Positions 25,731-63,865 of a stretch of 64,000 nt of DNA are shown one piece after another. The notes beneath the pieces were generated by a model. The model made no database searches. It saw only the letters and a list, made by a program, of their open reading frames with translations, and was not told where the DNA came from. The position numbers were made by a program, and so were the translations under genes. This DNA is from Paludibacteraceae bacterium. Its GTDB lineage: Bacteria; Bacteroidota; Bacteroidia; Bacteroidales; Paludibacteraceae. Each line of letters opens with the position of its first letter. The stretch's first letter is position 1. The stretch spans positions 25,786 through 89,785 of the forward strand of contig JAFTHS010000040.1 of assembly GCA_017457295.1 (NCBI GenBank), read 5' to 3'.

Positions 25731-25807
25731 ACTGAAAACGGAAAACGGAAAACGGAAAACGGAAAACTGAAAACGGAAAACTGAAAACGGAAAACGGAAA
25801 ACGGAAA
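25731..25807. repeat. Heptanucleotide microsatellite (ACGGAAA/ACTGAAA) x11 filling the whole intergenic gap
   Basis: Eleven contiguous 7-nt units run from the base after the TAA stop (25728-25730) to the A of the rsmI ATG (25807). Confidence 0.95.
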
Positions 25808-56398: not shown

Positions 56399-57598
56399 TT
56401 ACAAGGATAAGAATCGTTCTATCGGAGTTGAGAAAAATAATTCTGTTGGAAAAGCATCGCCACCAACCACAAGTGAGTACTCTGGATGAAATTTGTCAGC
56501 AAAAACATGAAGACCACTATTATCTTGTCGGTGACCACTTTTCACTTCTAATGCCATCAATCGATTTCCTGTTTGACGGATGATAAAATCCAATTCATCA
56601 TTGTGGTCTCTCCAATAATACAGGTCATAATCCTGCTCCTGCGCATGGTTGATGAGATGTGCACCTATAGCACTTTCCACCCAACGCCCCCAGCGACTTG
56701 GATCAAGTTGTTCGGTCTTAAATCCTCGACCTTGAAAATAACTCAATAGAGCGGTATTATAGACTTGATATTTTGGAATCGACTGATAGCGTCTTGCAAA
56801 GTCAGCTGCATACCGCTGCAATCCCCCTAATAGAGATGCTTCATCTAAAGTCTTGAGATAATTAGCTAAGGTGGATGTGTTTCCCGCCTCATTTAATTGA
56901 CCAATAATCTTATTGAATGCAATAATTTCGCCACTATACGCACATCCAATTTCGAATAGTTGTCTCATTAGAGCAGGTTTAAGTACGCGTTTGGTCATTA
57001 ACACATCGCGATTAATAGCTGGCTCAATAATAGAATCTCGCATATATTGACGCCAACGTTTCTCGTTATTGACATAGGGAGCAGCACCAGGGTATCCACC
57101 AAAATAGATGTACTGTTCAATTGAAAAGTTGAATGCTTCGTGCATTTCGGTGTAGGACCAATGTGGCACACGAATCAGCTCAAAGCGTCCCATCAAACTC
57201 TCCGTTAAGCCGTCTTTGAGTAGCAAACGACTACTGCCTAACAAAATCAGTTTGATATTGATATCATGAAAGGTGTCGTAGTCCCATTCTTTTTTGACAA
57301 TTTCGCTCCAATTGTCTATTTTTTGCACCTCGTCGATAATCAGTATATGCTCTTGTTGCCCCTCCAATTGCATACGAATACGAACGGATTGCCATTTCTC
57401 TGATATCCATGCACGATTATTTGTAGCTACTTCATCTGCATTTAGACTGGTAGCAGGTATAGTGCATTGTGCTAAAAATTGCTTGATGAGTGTAGTTTTT
57501 CCTACTTGACGTGGACCTGCAAGAACTTGAATACATTTTCTGGGTTCTTGCATACGTTCAATAATTGTACTTAATTGTGAGCGAACTATCATATACAA
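56399..57598 (-). CDS. AAA-family ATPase with DUF4143-like C-terminal domain
   Basis: Walker A LAGPRQVGKTT, Walker B ILIIDEVQ; 399 aa architecture typical of stand-alone AAA_14/DUF4143 proteins. Confidence 0.8.
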   Translation of the reverse strand: MYMIVRSQLSTIIERMQEPRKCIQVLAGPRQVGKTTLIKQFLAQCTIPATSLNADEVATNNRAWISEKWQSVRIRMQLEGQQEHILIIDEVQKIDNWSEIVKKEWDYDTFHDINIKLILLGSSRLLLKDGLTESLMGRFELIRVPHWSYTEMHEAFNFSIEQYIYFGGYPGAAPYVNNEKRWRQYMRDSIIEPAINRDVLMTKRVLKPALMRQLFEIGCAYSGEIIAFNKIIGQLNEAGNTSTLANYLKTLDEASLLGGLQRYAADFARRYQSIPKYQVYNTALLSYFQGRGFKTEQLDPSRWGRWVESAIGAHLINHAQEQDYDLYYWRDHNDELDFIIRQTGNRLMALEVKSGHRQDNSGLHVFADKFHPEYSLVVGGDAFPTELFFSTPIERFLSL

Positions 57599-57622
57599 CT
57601 GATTTATAGTTTTTTGTCGAAT

Positions 57623-57681
57623 CCAAAATTCTCAAACACTCTCTCCCAAATTCTCAAAGTATCATTCCCAAATTCTCAAAC
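57623..57681. repeat. Three direct repeats CCCAAATTCTCAAA(C/G) at 22-bp spacing
   Basis: Units at 57623-57637, 57645-57659 and 57667-57681, just upstream of the AAA ATPase start. Confidence 0.9.
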
Positions 57682-57726
57682 TCGGTGCAAAATTACTATA
57701 TTTTTGTGAACTATGCAAGTTTTTAG

Positions 57727-58158
57727 GTGTATTTTTTTGAAAAAAGTTTTTGGGTGCTGAATGTTGTGCTGAAAGTTACCTGCAAGTTTCGGGACCACTA
57801 TAGGAGATCTGTGGGATATCTGTAGGCTTTCTGTGGCTGTATTAGGTCGCTCTTTTAATCACTCTCAAGTTGACTGCGGGCTACGCGATCACTTCGCGAC
57901 CACTGTAGCACATCTGCTGCCTAGTTGTATCACAGCGGTGGCTTTGTGTTTTCACCTTTTCGTTTTCCATATGCCTCTATATATTATAGGGGTGCTGAAT
58001 ACTCAGCGTTTTAGTGGTTTGGTGCTGAATATTTGAGATTTTTGGGAATAAAATGGTATATACAACACGCGGGAAGTGTAGTGTTTACTAAGATTCCCGC
58101 GTGAGTGTATTTTTTTGAAAGAAGTTTGTGAGTGCTGAATGTTGTACTGAGAGTTATC
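57727..58158. repeat. Copy B of the dispersed composite repeat, bounded by 54-bp direct repeats
   Basis: 57727-57780 and 58105-58158 are 48/54 identical. Internal modules match 23074-23314 in inverted orientation. GTGCTGAAT occurs four times. Confidence 0.85.
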
Positions 58159-58172
58159 AATCATCAGCAAGG

Positions 58173-58970
58173 TTATTCCTTCACTTTCGTATGCGCTACA
58201 ATGTGAATACTCAATTCGTAAAGCAGGTATAGCGGTACTGTCACCAACAACAAAGTGAATATATCCGCAGTCGGTGTAATGACGGCTGACAAGATGGCTA
58301 ACACTACTATTGCATGTTTGCGGTATTGTACCAATAGCGGTTTGTCTATCAATCCCAATTTTGCCAAGAAATAGGCAATGATAGGTATCTCAAATAATAT
58401 GCCCATAAGCAATGATAACACCAATAGTGTTGATATATACGACTTTAGTGCAATCTGATTAACAACCATCTCTTGTACTTGATAGGTACTTAAGAATCGA
58501 AATGCGAAGGGGAATATCACAAAATAGTTGAGCAATACGCCCATGGCAAACAATATCACGCCAAAGAATATCAGCAGTATTGAATAGCGCTTTTCTTGTG
58601 TGTATAGCGCAGGAGCGATAAAGCCATAGAGTTGGATGATGAGATATGGGAACGCTACTAACACGCCCATAATGACTGCCACTTGCAAGTGCGTAGTGAA
58701 TTGCGATGCTAATTCGATATTGATAAACTCAATAGCGAAATCTCCTGGGCATAGTGCAGGCATAGACAATCGCTCTGCTAACCAACACAATCCGCGATAG
58801 AGAATAAAGTCGGATTTGGATGGAGCAAAGAGTATGCTGAAGAGTGCGTCCTTAAAGCAGAACGCAGCAATAGCGCATACTAACCACACTGCCAAGCAAC
58901 GGAAAACAACCTTTCGGAACACTTCTACATGTTCCCAAAAGGTCATTTTCTCCTCGTTATTATTTTTCAT
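58173..58970 (-). CDS. tatC: Twin-arginine translocase subunit TatC
   Basis: [12 protein letters not shown]…, six TM segments, FEIP and TPTAD motifs. The true start may be Met9 (58946). Confidence 0.92.
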
Positions 58971-59184
58971 CTTGGTTTGGTTGCTGTTCGGTAGACTGTT
59001 GCGATGGTTGATCTTTTAAGGGGCGTTTTACTTCCTCCTCCATCTCATTCATTCCCTGTTTGAACATCTTTACGCCTTTACCCATTCCTTTCATTAGCTC
59101 TGGAATTTTCTTGCCTCCAAATAGCAATAGCACAATGAGAACAATAAAAATAATCTCAGGTGCTCCTATCATCAATAGTGTCAT
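58960..59184 (-). CDS. tatA: Twin-arginine translocase subunit TatA/E
   Basis: 74 aa with a single TM, hinge [12 protein letters not shown], an amphipathic helix and an acidic tail. Confidence 0.9.
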
Positions 59185-59186
59185 GA

Positions 59187-59396
59187 TTAGATAATTTGAA
59201 TGTTAATACTATTCATGTTTTTCCATAAGAATACGAGTACCCATATTGCAATCAAACAAAGTATAGCTATAGTCGTACTAATTACAGCCACTTTATTCCA
59301 CACTCCGTGTTGTCTATTAAACCAACGGATAAGAAAGATGGCGAAGACAATAGTACTAACGCTAATAATTGCTAATAGAATGACCCCTATATTCAT
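59187..59396 (-). CDS. Small two-TM membrane protein, operon member, unknown function
   Basis: 69 aa with two ~20-residue hydrophobic helices. 4-nt overlap with the upstream gene; ends 2 nt before tatA. Confidence 0.55.
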
Positions 59397-59668
59397 TGTG
59401 GCATATTTAAATATATCTCACAAGTGTCAAAATTGATTTCCCAATGTCCACCTTCGCAAGATTCCCAGTTGTATTTAGTTGCCATGTCATCCCACCATTG
59501 TTGGAACTTGCTGCCTGTTTCGCCCATATCTTTTACGAGCTTTTCATACAACTCTGCGTTATCAGCAGTGAGAATCTTTGCCAATTCGGTCAAACCATTT
59601 CGACGCTCAAATAGCGTTTGAATGGTGTTTTTTTCTTCGACAGTTACCTGTCCTACAAGTTTTTTCAT
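59393..59668 (-). CDS. CXXX repeat peptide modification system accessory protein (91 aa)
   Basis: Size, position and operon context fit the NCBIfam-named accessory protein of this system. Assignment is from memory of the family, not from a search. Confidence 0.55.
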   Translation of the reverse strand: MKKLVGQVTVEEKNTIQTLFERRNGLTELAKILTADNAELYEKLVKDMGETGSKFQQWWDDMATKYNWESCEGGHWEINFDTCEIYLNMPQ

Positions 59669-59669
59669 A

Positions 59670-60623
59670 TTAAAATTCCTCCTTTACCTCAAATGGATCT
59701 AAATATGTGATTTCTTTTATCTCGTTATTGACTACATACCCTGCCTCTTTCAATTGTAATTGCAAATCGCGTGCAGCATTGCGCTCAAGGTGCGAGATGA
59801 TACATTGTTGGCGCGATGGGGTGTTGTTGTCCCATGTGAGTTTTTGATTGAGCCAAATACAACGATTGCAATGGTATGCATCACAAATGCGACAAAGTGG
59901 CGCATGGTCAAGTTGCAAGAGTTGTTTGTTTGGAATGTCAAGCCCTCTCTCTAAATCTCCTACACTACGCGAAGCATCTTTAGTCTTGTGATTCATGCGA
60001 TTGCTAATGCCCATCTGCTCATCATAATAGAATGCGGGGCAGAGGTAGAACTTTCCATTAGGTGCAAGCGTAATATTGCCAATACCTGCTTCACAATTGT
60101 GCATCTCGGTCAATTGCAAACGGTCTGTCAAGATGTTGAGTTGTGGGTTCTTTGCTTGCTTGTATAGATTGAGCAAAACGGCATTGAGCGTTGCCAATGC
60201 TTTTTTGTAATCTTCAATCTGTTCATCAGTAAATGATTCAATATTCGTCAAGCAGATATTGAGACGCGTGGTTTGTGGCAAGAGTGCTGCAATATCGTAT
60301 TGCTTTGCAATAAACTCGGCAATCGTCAAGCGCAATACAATATTGTCCGTTTCTGCTATTGTTGGCACAGAATCAAGTACTTGCACCTCACGTCCAATCT
60401 TCACATGGTCAATCGTCTCAATGAGTTCGTTGTATTCCGTAGGGAGTTCGTAGTCGGGATATACAAACTGAATCATCAAGTTTTGTTTCATACCAAAGAG
60501 GATTGCTTTGCGCAAGGTCTCCAATGGCATCAACTTTCGCTCTGTGAGCGGATTATTAGCATGGCAATAAGCCACGCTGGTGTCATCCAATAGGATAACC
60601 AAATATTGCAAATATGGTTTCAT
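59670..60623 (-). CDS. SPASM-domain maturase paralog lacking the radical SAM CX3CX2C motif (CXXX repeat peptide maturase-like)
   Basis: 317 aa with no CX3CX2C motif. C-terminal C-x16-GKFYLC…CRICDAYHCNRC…C is a SPASM-like seven-Cys signature. Confidence 0.65.
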   Translation of the reverse strand: MKPYLQYLVILLDDTSVAYCHANNPLTERKLMPLETLRKAILFGMKQNLMIQFVYPDYELPTEYNELIETIDHVKIGREVQVLDSVPTIAETDNIVLRLTIAEFIAKQYDIAALLPQTTRLNICLTNIESFTDEQIEDYKKALATLNAVLLNLYKQAKNPQLNILTDRLQLTEMHNCEAGIGNITLAPNGKFYLCPAFYYDEQMGISNRMNHKTKDASRSVGDLERGLDIPNKQLLQLDHAPLCRICDAYHCNRCIWLNQKLTWDNNTPSRQQCIISHLERNAARDLQLQLKEAGYVVNNEIKEITYLDPFEVKEEF

Positions 60624-60626
60624 TGC

Positions 60627-61850
60627 TTAGCAGATAATGTCGTTTGACGATTTCTTGTTTTGCTCAAATTCCTCGCGCTTGCCTTCTAATTCTAGTTTGC
60701 GGTAGAGCTTGTTCCAATAATAGTTGTTGGCACGCACACGCGCTTTGTGCATTTTGCAAATAGCGGTTGCACGTTCAAAGACGGTGTGCGTCTTGGCTGC
60801 ATCGTAGTTCTCGCCTTGGCACCAAGCACATCCCTCTGCTACTTCGCAATCTACGCACTCGGGCAAAGATTGGGTACAAAGATCAAGTGTAAGAAACGGA
60901 CGGAGTTTATTATTGTCAATTCCATCGTGAATGTTTCCGACAATCCATGCCTCTTTGTCACGAAGTGAGTATTGAGCGAAGCGAGTGCATGGGTAGAAAT
61001 TACCTGCTGCATCAACCGCTAACATCTTACCTGCACCGCACCAGTTTTGATTTTGTAATTGGCAATCTAAAGGTTTACCCATATTTTCGGAGAAGAAAGA
61101 ACATGCATAGTTTCTATATAATTCTTTATCTATGATTGTATCTGCCAATTGCATAAGTTGTTCCTCAAAGCGTAAGTCATCGCCTTCAGCCCATACATTC
61201 TCAAATACGCAGTTGATATTCACTTGATGAATGCCTAAGTCATAGAGGTGCAAAACAGATTCGCAGATATAGGGTATATCCGCAGATGAGATAGTCACTT
61301 TCGTGCCATCGCCAGGGAATTGGCTTTGCCATAGTGGTATATTCCTTACTACATCATCATACGAACCGCGTTCTGGACCATCACCCTTCCATATACGGTT
61401 AAGGTCGTGCTTGCGGCGAGTACCATCAATAGTAATACCAATACTTAGGTGTGATTTATTTTTCTCAATGAAGCGTTGTACTTTCTCGCTGGCATAGTTA
61501 ATACCATTGGTAGAGAATGAGAAACGATAGGAATTAAACCAATGGTGATTGCGACGGAAAAGTTCTTGTTTGATATAGTCGCAGATCTTGTCTATAAGGT
61601 CAATTTCTAGAAATGGTTCTCCTCCTATAAAGTCCCATACAACAGACTCGTACGCAAAGTTTGGATCATTTTCTCTATCCAATACATAATCAATAGCTGC
61701 CTTTGCTACTTCAAAAGGCATACGTTCCTTCTCGTTTTTGCCTACCAAATAGCAGTATTTGCAGGCAAGTTGGCAATCTTTGGTGACGATAAAGGTGATG
61801 TTTTTAGAAATTCCTGCTTGCCAAACACCATTGTATTTTTTTATTTGCAT
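60627..61850 (-). CDS. Radical SAM/SPASM peptide maturase (CXXX-repeat target family)
   Basis: C26-x3-C30-x2-C33 (DCQLACKYC). SPASM domain CGAGKMLAVDAAGNFYPC…CVDCEVAEGCAWC…C. 407 aa. Confidence 0.85.
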   Translation of the reverse strand: MQIKKYNGVWQAGISKNITFIVTKDCQLACKYCYLVGKNEKERMPFEVAKAAIDYVLDRENDPNFAYESVVWDFIGGEPFLEIDLIDKICDYIKQELFRRNHHWFNSYRFSFSTNGINYASEKVQRFIEKNKSHLSIGITIDGTRRKHDLNRIWKGDGPERGSYDDVVRNIPLWQSQFPGDGTKVTISSADIPYICESVLHLYDLGIHQVNINCVFENVWAEGDDLRFEEQLMQLADTIIDKELYRNYACSFFSENMGKPLDCQLQNQNWCGAGKMLAVDAAGNFYPCTRFAQYSLRDKEAWIVGNIHDGIDNNKLRPFLTLDLCTQSLPECVDCEVAEGCAWCQGENYDAAKTHTVFERATAICKMHKARVRANNYYWNKLYRKLELEGKREEFEQNKKSSNDIIC

Positions 61851-61927
61851 AGTATCTGAATAAATTCATTATGAACAATTACCATAGAAGATAAAATTGT
61901 ATCAACTATGGTAATCATTCCATTATT

Positions 61928-62158
61928 TTAACTGATAAGTGCCAATAAAGCTTTAATATCGGGTACACACCAATCTTCCAATGTATTACCCGCAAATATC
62001 AAAATAAAATTTCCATAAAAAGGTGAGTTCTCTATATTATATGGGAGATGATAGTAATGAATCACGCCATAATTTTTCAACTTATCATTTGATACACAAC
62101 GCCATTTTTGATTGGTAGCTAACCAATCAGCTTCTATTGGGGTTATTGCTCTCCTCAT
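61928..62158 (-). CDS. Hypothetical 76-aa protein between the precursor and the maturase
   Basis: ATG-initiated ORF 22 nt downstream of the precursor stop and co-directional with it. No motif recognised. Confidence 0.4.
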   Translation of the reverse strand: MRRAITPIEADWLATNQKWRCVSNDKLKNYGVIHYYHLPYNIENSPFYGNFILIFAGNTLEDWCVPDIKALLALIS

Positions 62159-62180
62159 AATTGCAATTATGGTTCATAAA

Positions 62181-62474
62181 CTAAAAATAAGCCTGTGAGC
62201 CACAACTTGTAGTACATTTGGTTTCACAACTGCCTGAGCATGAGTTTTGACAACCAAATTTACAACTACCTTGACACATACTGTGGCATGTGTTTTCGCA
62301 AGATCCCATACAAGAATTAGAACAACTAAGACCACAACCTGTTTCAGCTGCTTGCATTACATTAGGCATACTTGCCATTACTACTGCACCAACAACAGGC
62401 AATGCAGCTTTTGCGGCTTTTTTGAAAAACTCTCTACGCGATTGGAGTTCTTCGTTTTGTTTTTTGTTAGACAT
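62181..62474 (-). CDS. Tat-signal CXXX-repeat precursor peptide (radical SAM target)
   Basis: 97 aa with SRREFFK twin-arginine motif and a hydrophobic h-region. Twelve Cys fall at residues 47, 51, 55 … 91, exactly every fourth position. Confidence 0.85.
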   Translation of the reverse strand: MSNKKQNEELQSRREFFKKAAKAALPVVGAVVMASMPNVMQAAETGCGLSCSNSCMGSCENTCHSMCQGSCKFGCQNSCSGSCETKCTTSCGSQAYF

Positions 62475-62880
62475 AAAACTTAAGTTTTTGTTGTATAGGA
62501 ACTCCCAACTATACGGATTATTGGTTAAGTATAGGCATAAAATAAAAAGCGTGGAGTCCGACTATTGCCGTTCCATGCTCTGAGGCTGTCGCATTGCCTT
62601 ACTGATAAAACGACAACGCGAAGCCCACGCCGAATATAAATATTCTCCGTGCTACACAGTTAAGGTACGCGTGTGCGTATGTACATATACGCAAATGGCG
62701 TACCAAAATAGGCACAAGAGGGATAATCTATATCCCGTAGGACATCTACCGTTGCTATGTTCCTATCAGTTTGAAACTTGCGACATTTCAGAGCATCAGA
62801 ACAGAGCGCTAATAAACGCCTTTTAAATATGTCTGCTACCCCCGCCGATGACGTGCAGACATCCCCGGCGTGGAATTGCG
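62475..62880 (-). promoter_or_regulatory. Long (~400 nt) hairpin-rich 5' leader or independent sRNA upstream of the precursor gene; class unknown
   Basis: Lies between a consensus promoter (62885-62916) and the precursor ATG. Contains an 8-bp hairpin (62829-62862) with a possible pseudoknot, a nested 7+7-bp hairpin (62664-62704), and a T-run at about 62540-62550. Confidence 0.45.
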
Positions 62881-62884
62881 GGTG

Positions 62885-62916
62885 CAAATATACAACATTT
62901 TTTTGACATGACCAAA
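62885..62916 (-). promoter_or_regulatory. Bacteroidetes-type promoter (-33 TTTG, -7 TATATTTG) driving the leader and precursor operon
   Basis: On the minus strand, TTTG (62913-62916) and TATATTTG (62885-62892) with a 20-nt spacer. Confidence 0.55.
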
Positions 62917-62972
62917 TAAAAATGCCATTTATGCGAATTTAGCATAAATGGCAGAGGTGTTTTGGCTTATAA
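62913..62972 (-). terminator. Rho-independent terminator of the kinase-like gene; copy 2 of the element at 19008-19067
   Basis: 12-bp perfect stem tgccatttatgc / gcataaatggca (62923-62953) followed on the minus strand by TTTTTATTT. Confidence 0.75.
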
Positions 62973-63058
62973 CGCTATATTAAACATGTCGGGCAACGGT
63001 ATGCGTTGCGGATTAGTTATGAACTATAAGTGATGAATAATTTAGGGGAGTTAGTATT

Positions 63059-63865
63059 TTATTTTCTAATAAATTTTACGATGCAATCAATACAAATAGG
63101 AGTGTCGGAAACAGCATCAATAAACACATTTGCAGGGTGCATATCTTCTAAGTGTAAGCGTTCTCCAATATAATTTACGCCTCGTCCATCTCCGTTATCA
63201 CGAAAGCCCTTTTGAGCAACCATGAGATCTATCTCTTGCTTGGTAGCTAATCGTTTGCAAGTAACATAGGGTTGCGTACAAATAATACGGAACATTCCTT
63301 CGGAATCGCGCGTAAAGCCAATCACATTCATAGGAGTTTCTGCAAAGAGTGCATTGTGCAATACGATAGATTCTAATGCTCTGCCAAGTGTGGCATAGAT
63401 GGATGTACGAAGCTTGATGACAGAGGTGTCGCCATTTTGGTAATAAACTTTGGCTTCTGCTCCTTGGGCAATCATCGGACCATATTCCACTTCGATATCC
63501 TTTTCGGCATTATCGAACCATATACCTCTGACTTCTGCCCATTGACGAACCAGTTTCTCTTGAAGTTCGTCTATCTCCCAATTTCCTGGGCTAATTTGGC
63601 TTGCTGAAGCATTTGCACTTGCTTCAAGGCTTGTTCGCGCGTAGCAGCTGACGATGTACGCCCCAATGAGCATCTCACCTGCGCAGCAGAGACCTGCATG
63701 CTCCGCTTGATTGAATTGAGTAAGGTTTGTTTTTCCATTGAGTATGTCGTTTGTGAAATTATCAATCAGTTGTGTTGTTTGCTCTGAAAATCCGTTATAA
63801 CGAATAGCAGCATAGATTGATTCTATGCTTATTGGCGATGTGCTATTCAATAGTTCTTCTGACAT
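63059..63865 (-). CDS. Minimal protein-kinase-like fold protein (Bud32/RIO/Kdo-kinase-like) with unknown N-terminal domain
   Basis: AQGAEAKVYY (Gly-loop-like), SVIKLR (candidate Lys), LEDMHPANVF (catalytic-loop-like), ICIDCIV (DFG-equivalent). Confidence 0.5.
   Translation of the reverse strand: MSEELLNSTSPISIESIYAAIRYNGFSEQTTQLIDNFTNDILNGKTNLTQFNQAEHAGLCCAGEMLIGAYIVSCYARTSLEASANASASQISPGNWEIDELQEKLVRQWAEVRGIWFDNAEKDIEVEYGPMIAQGAEAKVYYQNGDTSVIKLRTSIYATLGRALESIVLHNALFAETPMNVIGFTRDSEGMFRIICTQPYVTCKRLATKQEIDLMVAQKGFRDNGDGRGVNYIGERLHLEDMHPANVFIDAVSDTPICIDCIVKFIRK

Follow-up and report, generated by a model that had tools for sequence, protein, structure and literature searches.

The twin-arginine translocation (Tat) genes tatA and tatC lie at the 3' end of a CXXX-repeat peptide modification cluster in the genome of a Paludibacteraceae bacterium (GCA_017457295.1). 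The window analysed here is a stretch of 64,000 nucleotides (nt) from contig JAFTHS010000040.1 (forward-strand positions 25,786 to 89,785), and all positions refer to it unless a related locus is named. Eight tightly packed genes, from the precursor gene through to tatC, occupy the minus strand between 58173 and 62474 (Table 1). The joint occurrence of TIGR04115, TIGR04119, TIGR04116 and a precursor with Cys-x3 repeats identifies the CXXX-repeat radical S-adenosylmethionine (SAM) system. The precursor, whose signal reads SRREFFKK, scored 41.4 bits against the paralog model TIGR04117, which is under the cut-off of 50. Homologues of the second maturase formed 5544 clusters in a word-index search, and those of the accessory protein 6567 clusters in a large protein collection. 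TatA and TatC are ordinary members of their families, with profile matches above the curated cut-offs and no special domains. TatA shows the N-terminal transmembrane helix, F-G hinge and amphipathic helix of its family, and the match of TatC to PF00902 spans profile positions 1–208 of 208, the full six-transmembrane domain. The 76-amino-acid (aa) open reading frame (ORF) behind the precursor is absent from the related locus L001, where the spacer is 108 nt. Although a gene call exists for it in L092, conservation as a gene is improbable.

Table 1. Genes and candidate regulatory features of the CXXX-repeat cluster in the window
Feature	Position	Strand	Basis
Candidate Bacteroidetes-type promoter: TTTG, 20-nt spacer, TATATTTG	62885..62916	minus	sequence reading and TAnnTTTG scan
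Structured leader RNA, two mutually pairing blocks (62726-62843, 62543-62640)	62543..62843	minus	blastn, nhmmer, RNAalifold
Leader terminator hairpin and U-run	about 62539-62581	minus	folds at -19.4 kcal/mol
CXXX-repeat precursor, 97 aa, twin-arginine signal SRREFFKKAAKAALPVVGAVV, Cys-x3-Cys repeat core	62181..62474	minus	TIGR04114 21.7 bits (cut-off 20)
ORF, 76 aa, between precursor and radical SAM gene	61928-62158	minus	no family match
Radical SAM/SPASM peptide maturase, CXXX-repeat target family	60627..61850	minus	TIGR04115 621 bits (cut-off 350); PF04055
CXXX repeat peptide maturase, SPASM-like second enzyme	59670..60623	minus	TIGR04119 208 bits (cut-off 150)
CXXX repeat modification system accessory protein, 91 aa, short-tail allele ending LNMPQ	59393..59668	minus	TIGR04116 99.8 bits (cut-off 50)
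Two-helix membrane hairpin protein, 69 aa, orphan family	59187..59396	minus	homologues at accessory/tatA junction only; dN/dS; hairpin model
TatA, 74 aa (70 aa from Met5)	58960..59184	minus	TIGR01411 66 bits (cut-off 53.9); PF02416 53 bits (cut-off 21)
TatC, 265 aa (Met1 start) or 257 aa (Met9 start)	58173..58970	minus	TIGR00945 153 bits (cut-off 132.7); PF00902 196 bits
Strong stem-loop after tatC, probable transcript end	58060..58110	minus	-24.3 kcal/mol, z = -7.97 vs shuffles; inverted repeat

The genes at the export end of the cluster meet at overlapping or nearly abutting codons. The accessory gene and the 69-aa ORF share an ATGA on the minus strand (59393–59396), the stop codon TAA of the 69-aa ORF is followed by 'tc' and then by the tatA ATG at 59184 (a gap of 2 nt), and tatA and tatC share 11 nt, or stand 13 nt apart if TatC begins at Met9. 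An earlier sequence-only reading of this DNA had given the same three junctions, including the alternative for Met9, and all were confirmed. The gap before TatA becomes 14 nt with the Met5 start, which gene callers picked in L092–L095. For TatC, it is plausible that Met1 is at least as likely a start as Met9, since most relatives retain a short polar extension at the N-terminus together with an upstream Met; in distant clades this Met is the sole possible start.

Related clusters were gathered by a genome scan in which an alignment of the second maturase was the query and each species was represented by one genome. This yielded 80 loci at 46–95 % identity from Paludibacteraceae, Candidatus Aphodosoma, Enterocola and Colicola, Muribaculaceae, Tannerella, Dysgonamonadaceae and unclassified Bacteroidales metagenome-assembled genomes (MAGs), most of them from herbivore and human guts, and the loci were annotated with profiles made from the window proteins. 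Enough sequence 3' of the accessory gene was available for 71 loci. In 70 of these 71 species-level Bacteroidales genomes, tatA and tatC were found directly downstream of the accessory gene on the same strand; the remaining genome is considered below. Between the accessory gene and tatA the gap measured −4 to +108 nt, or about 200 nt where the 69-aa gene intervened. The accessory gene directly abutted tatA in 65 of the 70 linked genomes, 17 of which had an ATGA overlap. The tight junctions of the window are not a chance arrangement, because 70 related genomes repeat them. The sequence-only reading had claimed that tatA and tatC are chained translationally to the modification genes through the 69-aa protein. 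The packing of these genes into one tight unit was borne out, and it is conserved in nearly all evaluable genomes; the proposed route through the 69-aa protein was not, as its gene is a clade-restricted insert at a junction that is otherwise usually direct.

Linkage of this kind could also be a matter of synteny rather than function, with tatA and tatC serving as the housekeeping Tat system of the organism, and the absence of special domains from either protein fits such a role. This explanation is very unlikely. The linkage extends across families and includes overlapping stop and start codons, and the flanking genes vary, including among clusters that share segments of 95–100 % identity. The identity of TatC to that of the window declines from 98 % to 42 % in parallel with the rest of the cluster. 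Two MAGs carried two clusters each, and each cluster had a separate tatA–tatC pair (75 % and 92 % identity between the two TatC proteins), although binning of a MAG might merge strains. Two further observations, on the precursors and on a Firmicute relative, also speak against a housekeeping role.

The precursors were the only proteins near the clusters with a Tat signal. A twin-arginine motif was present in 114 of 116 distinct precursors from related loci, and about 1.4 Mb of surrounding sequence, a sample that is biased towards the clusters themselves, contained no further credible Tat signal. Mean pairwise identity of the precursors was 54 % in the signal region and 26 % in the cores. Comparison of the window precursor (62181–62474) with those of L005, L007, L012–L016, L020 and L047 showed hypervariable core regions behind a conserved signal, and the window and L012 share the same signal with different cores. 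Precursor lengths ranged from about 80 to more than 400 aa, with many above 200 aa. Some of the long precursors have lipobox-like sites after the twin-arginine signal (LLNSC, LLSSC and AFTSC), which suggests that Tat-exported lipoproteins may be among them.

A plasmid search for the cluster returned a distant cluster of Anaerococcus as its only match, and nothing was found to show that the Bacteroidales block is plasmid-borne. This match, on plasmid pAPRE01 of Anaerococcus prevotii (L096, 44–4287), is a distant Firmicute member of the maturase family. It encodes a 56-aa CxxxC precursor without a twin-arginine signal, a fused radical SAM-maturase protein of 728 aa and a 41-aa, half-length version of the accessory protein, similar to its N-terminal half, followed by an ATP-binding cassette (ABC) transporter in the position that tatA and tatC occupy in Bacteroidales. 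The pAPRE01 cluster adjoins a class III lanthipeptide cluster.

TatA and TatC are thus the predicted export module of the Bacteroidales CXXX system and not its chance neighbours, because the linkage is conserved, sequence identity tracks that of the cluster, the flanking genes differ, each cluster has its own tatA–tatC pair, the precursors carry twin-arginine signals and an ABC exporter takes the same operon position in the Firmicute relative. Co-conservation of the 69-aa gene with CXXX clusters as opposed to tat genes, which had been suggested as a test of the function of the 69-aa protein, cannot discriminate, because tatA and tatC themselves track with the CXXX cluster.

Comparison of nucleotide identity among the window, L012, L056, L013, L015 and L001 showed that the DNA of the clusters is mosaic. 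Between the window and L056, for instance, identity is 75–79 % in the 5' half of the radical SAM gene and 99–100 % in part of the maturase gene and at the start of tatC. This pattern indicates that co-circulating clusters frequently exchange DNA by homologous recombination.

The eight genes would be read from a single transcript running from about 62880 to about 58060, precursor to tatC. A terminator-like hairpin that belongs to the upstream gene (62953–62923) immediately precedes the candidate promoter. Exact TAnnTTTG boxes occur near the cluster on the minus strand only at 62885–62892, at 62255–62262 inside the precursor ORF and at 57688–57695 before the next gene. The candidate promoter and the stem-loop after tatC bracket the unit, and the box inside the precursor ORF is the sole one between them, which would fit one transcript. 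No terminator-like hairpin was found on the minus strand of 58960–59700. The stem-loop after tatC lies 60–110 nt past the tatC stop codon, and its U-run is imperfect, so that it was missed by a simple terminator scan. A sigma-70 promoter scan, which is uninformative for Bacteroidetes, gave no excess over shuffled sequences. No attenuator was found between the precursor and the radical SAM gene, where folding was no better than in shuffled sequences (z = −1.6).

The leader extends over about 410 nt from the promoter candidate to the precursor ATG and contains a structured RNA of about 300 nt. By blastn and nhmmer, about 40 related loci have this RNA upstream of their first precursor. RNAalifold predicted 63 pairs forming a long interrupted rod, with compensatory double changes in 23 pairs; 95.4 % of cells were paired in this structure, compared with 36–46 % when the partners were slid by 1–3 columns, and none of 500 shuffles reached the observed covariation. 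The 5' arm of the leader terminator (GGAACG) can alternatively pair with an invariant TGTTCT in the first block, which gives a terminator/antiterminator layout. A search of Rfam 15 with the leader returned no match at E ≤ 1, and a search over 57300–63100 returned one chance-level match (E = 0.23) far under the gathering score. The leader RNA may be either a riboswitch-like attenuator of the whole operon, including tatA and tatC, or an independent small RNA. In L047, a second, inverted copy of the leader RNA with both blocks was present on the minus strand at 1315–1557, roughly 6 kb upstream of the leader that belongs to the cluster. The noncoding region 3' of tatC (57600–58170) has repeats of its own: a 52-nt direct repeat (57727–57778 and 58105–58156, 90 % identical and 378 nt apart), a GGTGCTGAAT motif that occurs four times, and three tandem 22-nt repeats (57622–57687) before an AAA_14/DUF4143 gene. 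This region had no Rfam match.

The 69-aa protein belongs to a small family. A word-index search found two clusters of homologues and an exhaustive phmmer search over 1.84 billion representatives found four. Whether the gene recurs at all had been raised as a test of its significance, and it does: every known homologue lies at the accessory/tatA junction, and each copy with readable context sits between the accessory gene and tatA. Family lengths are 61–69 aa, with the frame preserved and the C-terminal tail unconserved, and seven positions are invariant in the family alignment at 35–72 % identity (M1, S12, W25, Q29, G31, N34 and W52). The AlphaFold2 model is a helical hairpin with helices at 3–28 and 32–68 and a three-residue turn at Q29-x-G31 (predicted local distance difference test score, pLDDT, 81). 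The most likely topology places the turn (W-x3-Q-x-G-x2-N-K) in the cytoplasm and both termini outside, because the turn region reads as basic in six of the seven family members and the termini do not. The ratio of nonsynonymous to synonymous substitution rates (dN/dS) of the 69-aa gene was 0.08–0.41 across all pairs with estimable dS, and 0.08–0.27 in close pairs, compared with 0.01–0.10 for the accessory gene and tatC. The 69-aa ORF is therefore a real gene under purifying selection.

Scans of seven family members against Pfam, NCBIfam and PHROGs returned only noise from hydrophobic composition (E ≥ 0.0017), far under gathering scores. Membership of the TatA/TatB/TatE family does not agree with the lack of a PF02416 or TIGR01411 match or with two long helices that have neither a hinge nor an amphipathic helix. 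The hhalign probability was 0.5 % against the cluster TatA profile and 0.15 % against the cluster TatC profile, and an origin as a degenerate copy of tatA or as a tatC fragment was therefore rejected. The claim of the sequence-only reading that this small membrane protein lacks a TatA/B-type hinge thus agrees with profiles, hhalign and the structural model alike. The protein is a member of an undescribed orphan family of uncertain importance. For its neighbour, the 91-aa accessory protein (AlphaFold2 model, pLDDT 83), roles as a Tat proofreading chaperone (TorD/DmsD, NapD) or as a PqqD-like recognition element of ribosomally synthesized peptides with post-translational modifications (RiPPs) were considered; no fold match to either was found.

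The preferred reading is that 58173–59396 forms the export end of one make-and-export operon and that the 69-aa protein is a dispensable partner of its conserved machinery, to which a probability of roughly 55 % is given. Several observations weigh against this reading. One evaluable genome, a Dysgonamonadaceae MAG (L091, 10946–12598), has no adjacent tatA and tatC and carries a convergent RarA-like ATPase gene after the accessory gene. A Foldseek search with the accessory protein model against the PDB returned nothing at E ≤ 0.001, with a best TM-score of 0.41. The minus strand lacks an exact TAnnTTTG from 57696 to 62254, in line with the earlier claim that neither such a box nor a terminator separates the genes at the export end; chance alone would give about two, and the absence is only weak evidence against an internal promoter. 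The 69-aa gene was present in five of the 71 evaluable genomes and absent from 65 of the 70 linked clusters, and in relatives whose TatC is 95–98 % identical a clean indel of about 190 base pairs (bp) accounts for its absence. The elevated dN/dS of the gene fits weak or no specific function, and nothing that was found ties the 69-aa protein physically to TatA and TatC.

Because the 69-aa gene can be missing beside a TatC that is 95–98 % identical, any role of the protein is non-essential and it is not a required Tat adaptor, a function that the sequence-only reading had suggested. In a tree of the accessory protein, TatA and TatC, all carriers fell in one sub-clade, where they were interleaved with non-carriers, and the family spans lineages in which TatC is only 76–79 % identical. 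No substitute small membrane ORF recurred in clusters without the gene. The state of the junction was associated with the C-terminus of the accessory protein, which was compared between the window (59393–59420) and L005, L007, L013–L017, L020, L030, L033, L036 and L056. Carriers have a short tail (for example, LNMPQ or IIPE), while a Cys-rich C-terminus of the form C(N/G/S)xxCxCxK, for example CNNECNCNK or CGTCDCK, was present in 12 non-carrier relatives, including the closest, and in none of the carriers. Both states predate the split of the window from its nearest non-carrier. They appear to have been swapped by recombination and not made by repeated deletion, because both are old and the cluster DNA is a mosaic of 75 % and 99–100 % identical segments. 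Most clusters have neither the 69-aa gene nor the Cys-rich tail and therefore neither is essential. Given this distribution, the 69-aa protein is not the general link between the genes; it is an optional and fast-evolving addition that few lineages have.

The distribution also bears on a possible self-protection role, in which the 69-aa protein would give immunity to the mature CXXX product. In the subtilosin cluster, AlbB is a small hydrophobic protein of the immunity type in a radical SAM peptide cluster, and the 69-aa protein resembles this pattern in being a tiny, hydrophobic, two-helix protein within a peptide-modification cluster. Its fast evolution and its patchy, allele-like distribution, shaped by recombination, are both typical of competition and immunity genes. 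However, 65 of the 70 clusters have neither the gene nor an analogous small membrane ORF, and one 69-aa protein (identical or 99 % identical) is paired with unrelated core peptides and with different flanking genes. The invariant residues fall in the probable cytoplasmic turn rather than on the periplasmic side, and precursors that often exceed 200 aa, some with lipobox-like sites, are unlike bacteriocins. An immunity function is accordingly unlikely, and so is the earlier suggestion of a receptor or immunity protein matched to the modified peptide, given the near-identical 69-aa proteins beside unrelated cores.

A further alternative is that the ORF has no specific function and is an insert of about 190 bp kept open for ribosomes to pass from the accessory gene to tatA, with its hydrophobicity tolerated. 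Coupling-type junctions at both ends (ATGA at one, and 2–4 nt or an overlap at the other), a dN/dS 3–10 times that of the neighbouring genes, a variable length (61–69 aa) with an unconserved tail, frequent loss and the lack of a detectable parent family would all be expected of such a passenger. It is nevertheless a fairly unlikely explanation: dN/dS is well below 1 even so, two Trp residues and the Q-x-G turn are among the seven invariant positions, the family has been retained in lineages as distant as those noted above, and relatives couple the flanking genes without any spacer. The 69-aa protein may instead be a dispensable membrane modulator or tether that acts with the accessory protein or the translocon at the cytoplasmic face, a role held with low confidence. 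Its partner would be sought among the conserved parts, namely the signal peptide, the accessory protein and TatA/TatC, because the protein is not matched to the variable core.

A pathway consistent with these data would begin at an operon with the order promoter, leader RNA, precursor, radical SAM maturase, second maturase, accessory protein, 69-aa protein, TatA and TatC. The twin-arginine signal of the precursor probably doubles as the recognition leader for the maturases. The radical SAM/SPASM enzymes would modify the precursor in the cytoplasm, because they need cytoplasmic Fe-S clusters and SAM, and the cross-linked, already folded product would then be exported by the cluster's own TatA and TatC, which overlapping or abutting reading frames would keep in fixed proportion to the rest of the cluster. 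The 69-aa protein would be a later, clade-restricted addition, an inner-membrane hairpin whose synthesis keeps pace with that of the accessory protein and TatA, and it would act on the accessory protein, the signal peptide or TatA/TatC but not on the variable mature peptide. A more elaborate version, in which Tat has been captured as a dedicated exporter of radical SAM peptides, the twin-arginine signal is the RiPP leader, the 69-aa hairpin (or the Cys-rich accessory tail in sister alleles) is a Tat-associated coupling device of a new type that hands cross-linked cargo from the modification complex to TatC as a quality-control gate, and a riboswitch-like leader not described before switches the whole unit, is improbable as a whole.

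Peptides modified by radical SAM enzymes normally leave the cell by ABC transporters, and Tat is usually regarded as a general route for cofactor-containing enzymes. The clusters described here join radical SAM modification and Tat in one predicted operon across gut and rumen Bacteroidales, in at least two named families (Paludibacteraceae and Muribaculaceae) and many unclassified MAGs. They may therefore serve as a model for making a cross-linked peptide or protein in the cytoplasm and transferring it folded across the membrane, and for one signal peptide serving both the modification enzymes and the translocase. The interesting biology is the conserved make-and-export operon with its leader RNA, a new riboswitch or attenuator candidate for the CXXX system, and the link through the 69-aa protein is a minor, lineage-specific accessory. 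The 69-aa protein is modest when taken alone, but its alternation with the Cys-rich tail marks the accessory/TatA junction as a recombination-shuffled spot of functional interest.

The CXXX-repeat radical SAM system was reportedly defined computationally by Haft and Basu in 2011, and its models TIGR04114–TIGR04119 are said to have been in TIGRFAMs/NCBIfam since that year. All four protein families occur here in the usual order, above or near their cut-offs, and public annotations of the relatives carry the CXXX family names. A search of the searchable literature for a link of the CXXX system to Tat found none, although a mention of the Tat signal in the founding paper is possible. The CXXX family definitions in annotation databases omit the near-universal export module of tatA and tatC and, as far as this is checkable, do not include the leader RNA, the 69-aa gene or the leader with its Tat signal either.

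The phoD–tatAd–tatCd operon of Bacillus subtilis is a substrate-dedicated Tat operon (PMC3827258). It is probably the closest functional precedent. In both systems a gene for Tat cargo with a twin-arginine signal is co-located and co-oriented, in the same unit, with its own two-component TatA/TatC, and more than one tatA–tatC pair can be present in a genome, each tied to a particular cargo, as in the two-cluster MAGs. The Bacteroidales operons differ in that the cargo is a hypervariable family of Cys-rich repeat peptides or proteins, which radical SAM enzymes from the same operon modify first, in their Gram-negative host and in the coupling of genes by overlapping codons; cargo specificity is putative here. 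The ranthipeptide and sactipeptide radical SAM-SPASM clusters (relatives of PapB, CteB and SCIFF) resemble the modification half of the operon. After its own family, the radical SAM maturase is nearest to the PapB-type thioether-forming enzymes (185 bits against NF047865 and 113 bits against TIGR03974), and the Anaerococcus prevotii homologue has the classic layout of precursor, maturase and ABC exporter. Unlike those clusters, the Bacteroidales operons have predicted Tat export in place of an ABC transporter or peptidase, a leader that is a cleavable twin-arginine signal and many long precursors. The 69-aa protein is, like TatA, TatB and TatE, a small inner-membrane protein encoded beside tatA and tatC, but it differs from them in its two transmembrane helices and in having neither hinge nor amphipathic helix. 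It is similar to AlbB-type immunity proteins in size, hydrophobicity and place in a radical SAM peptide operon, and differs from these in its absence from most clusters and in not being matched to the core peptide.

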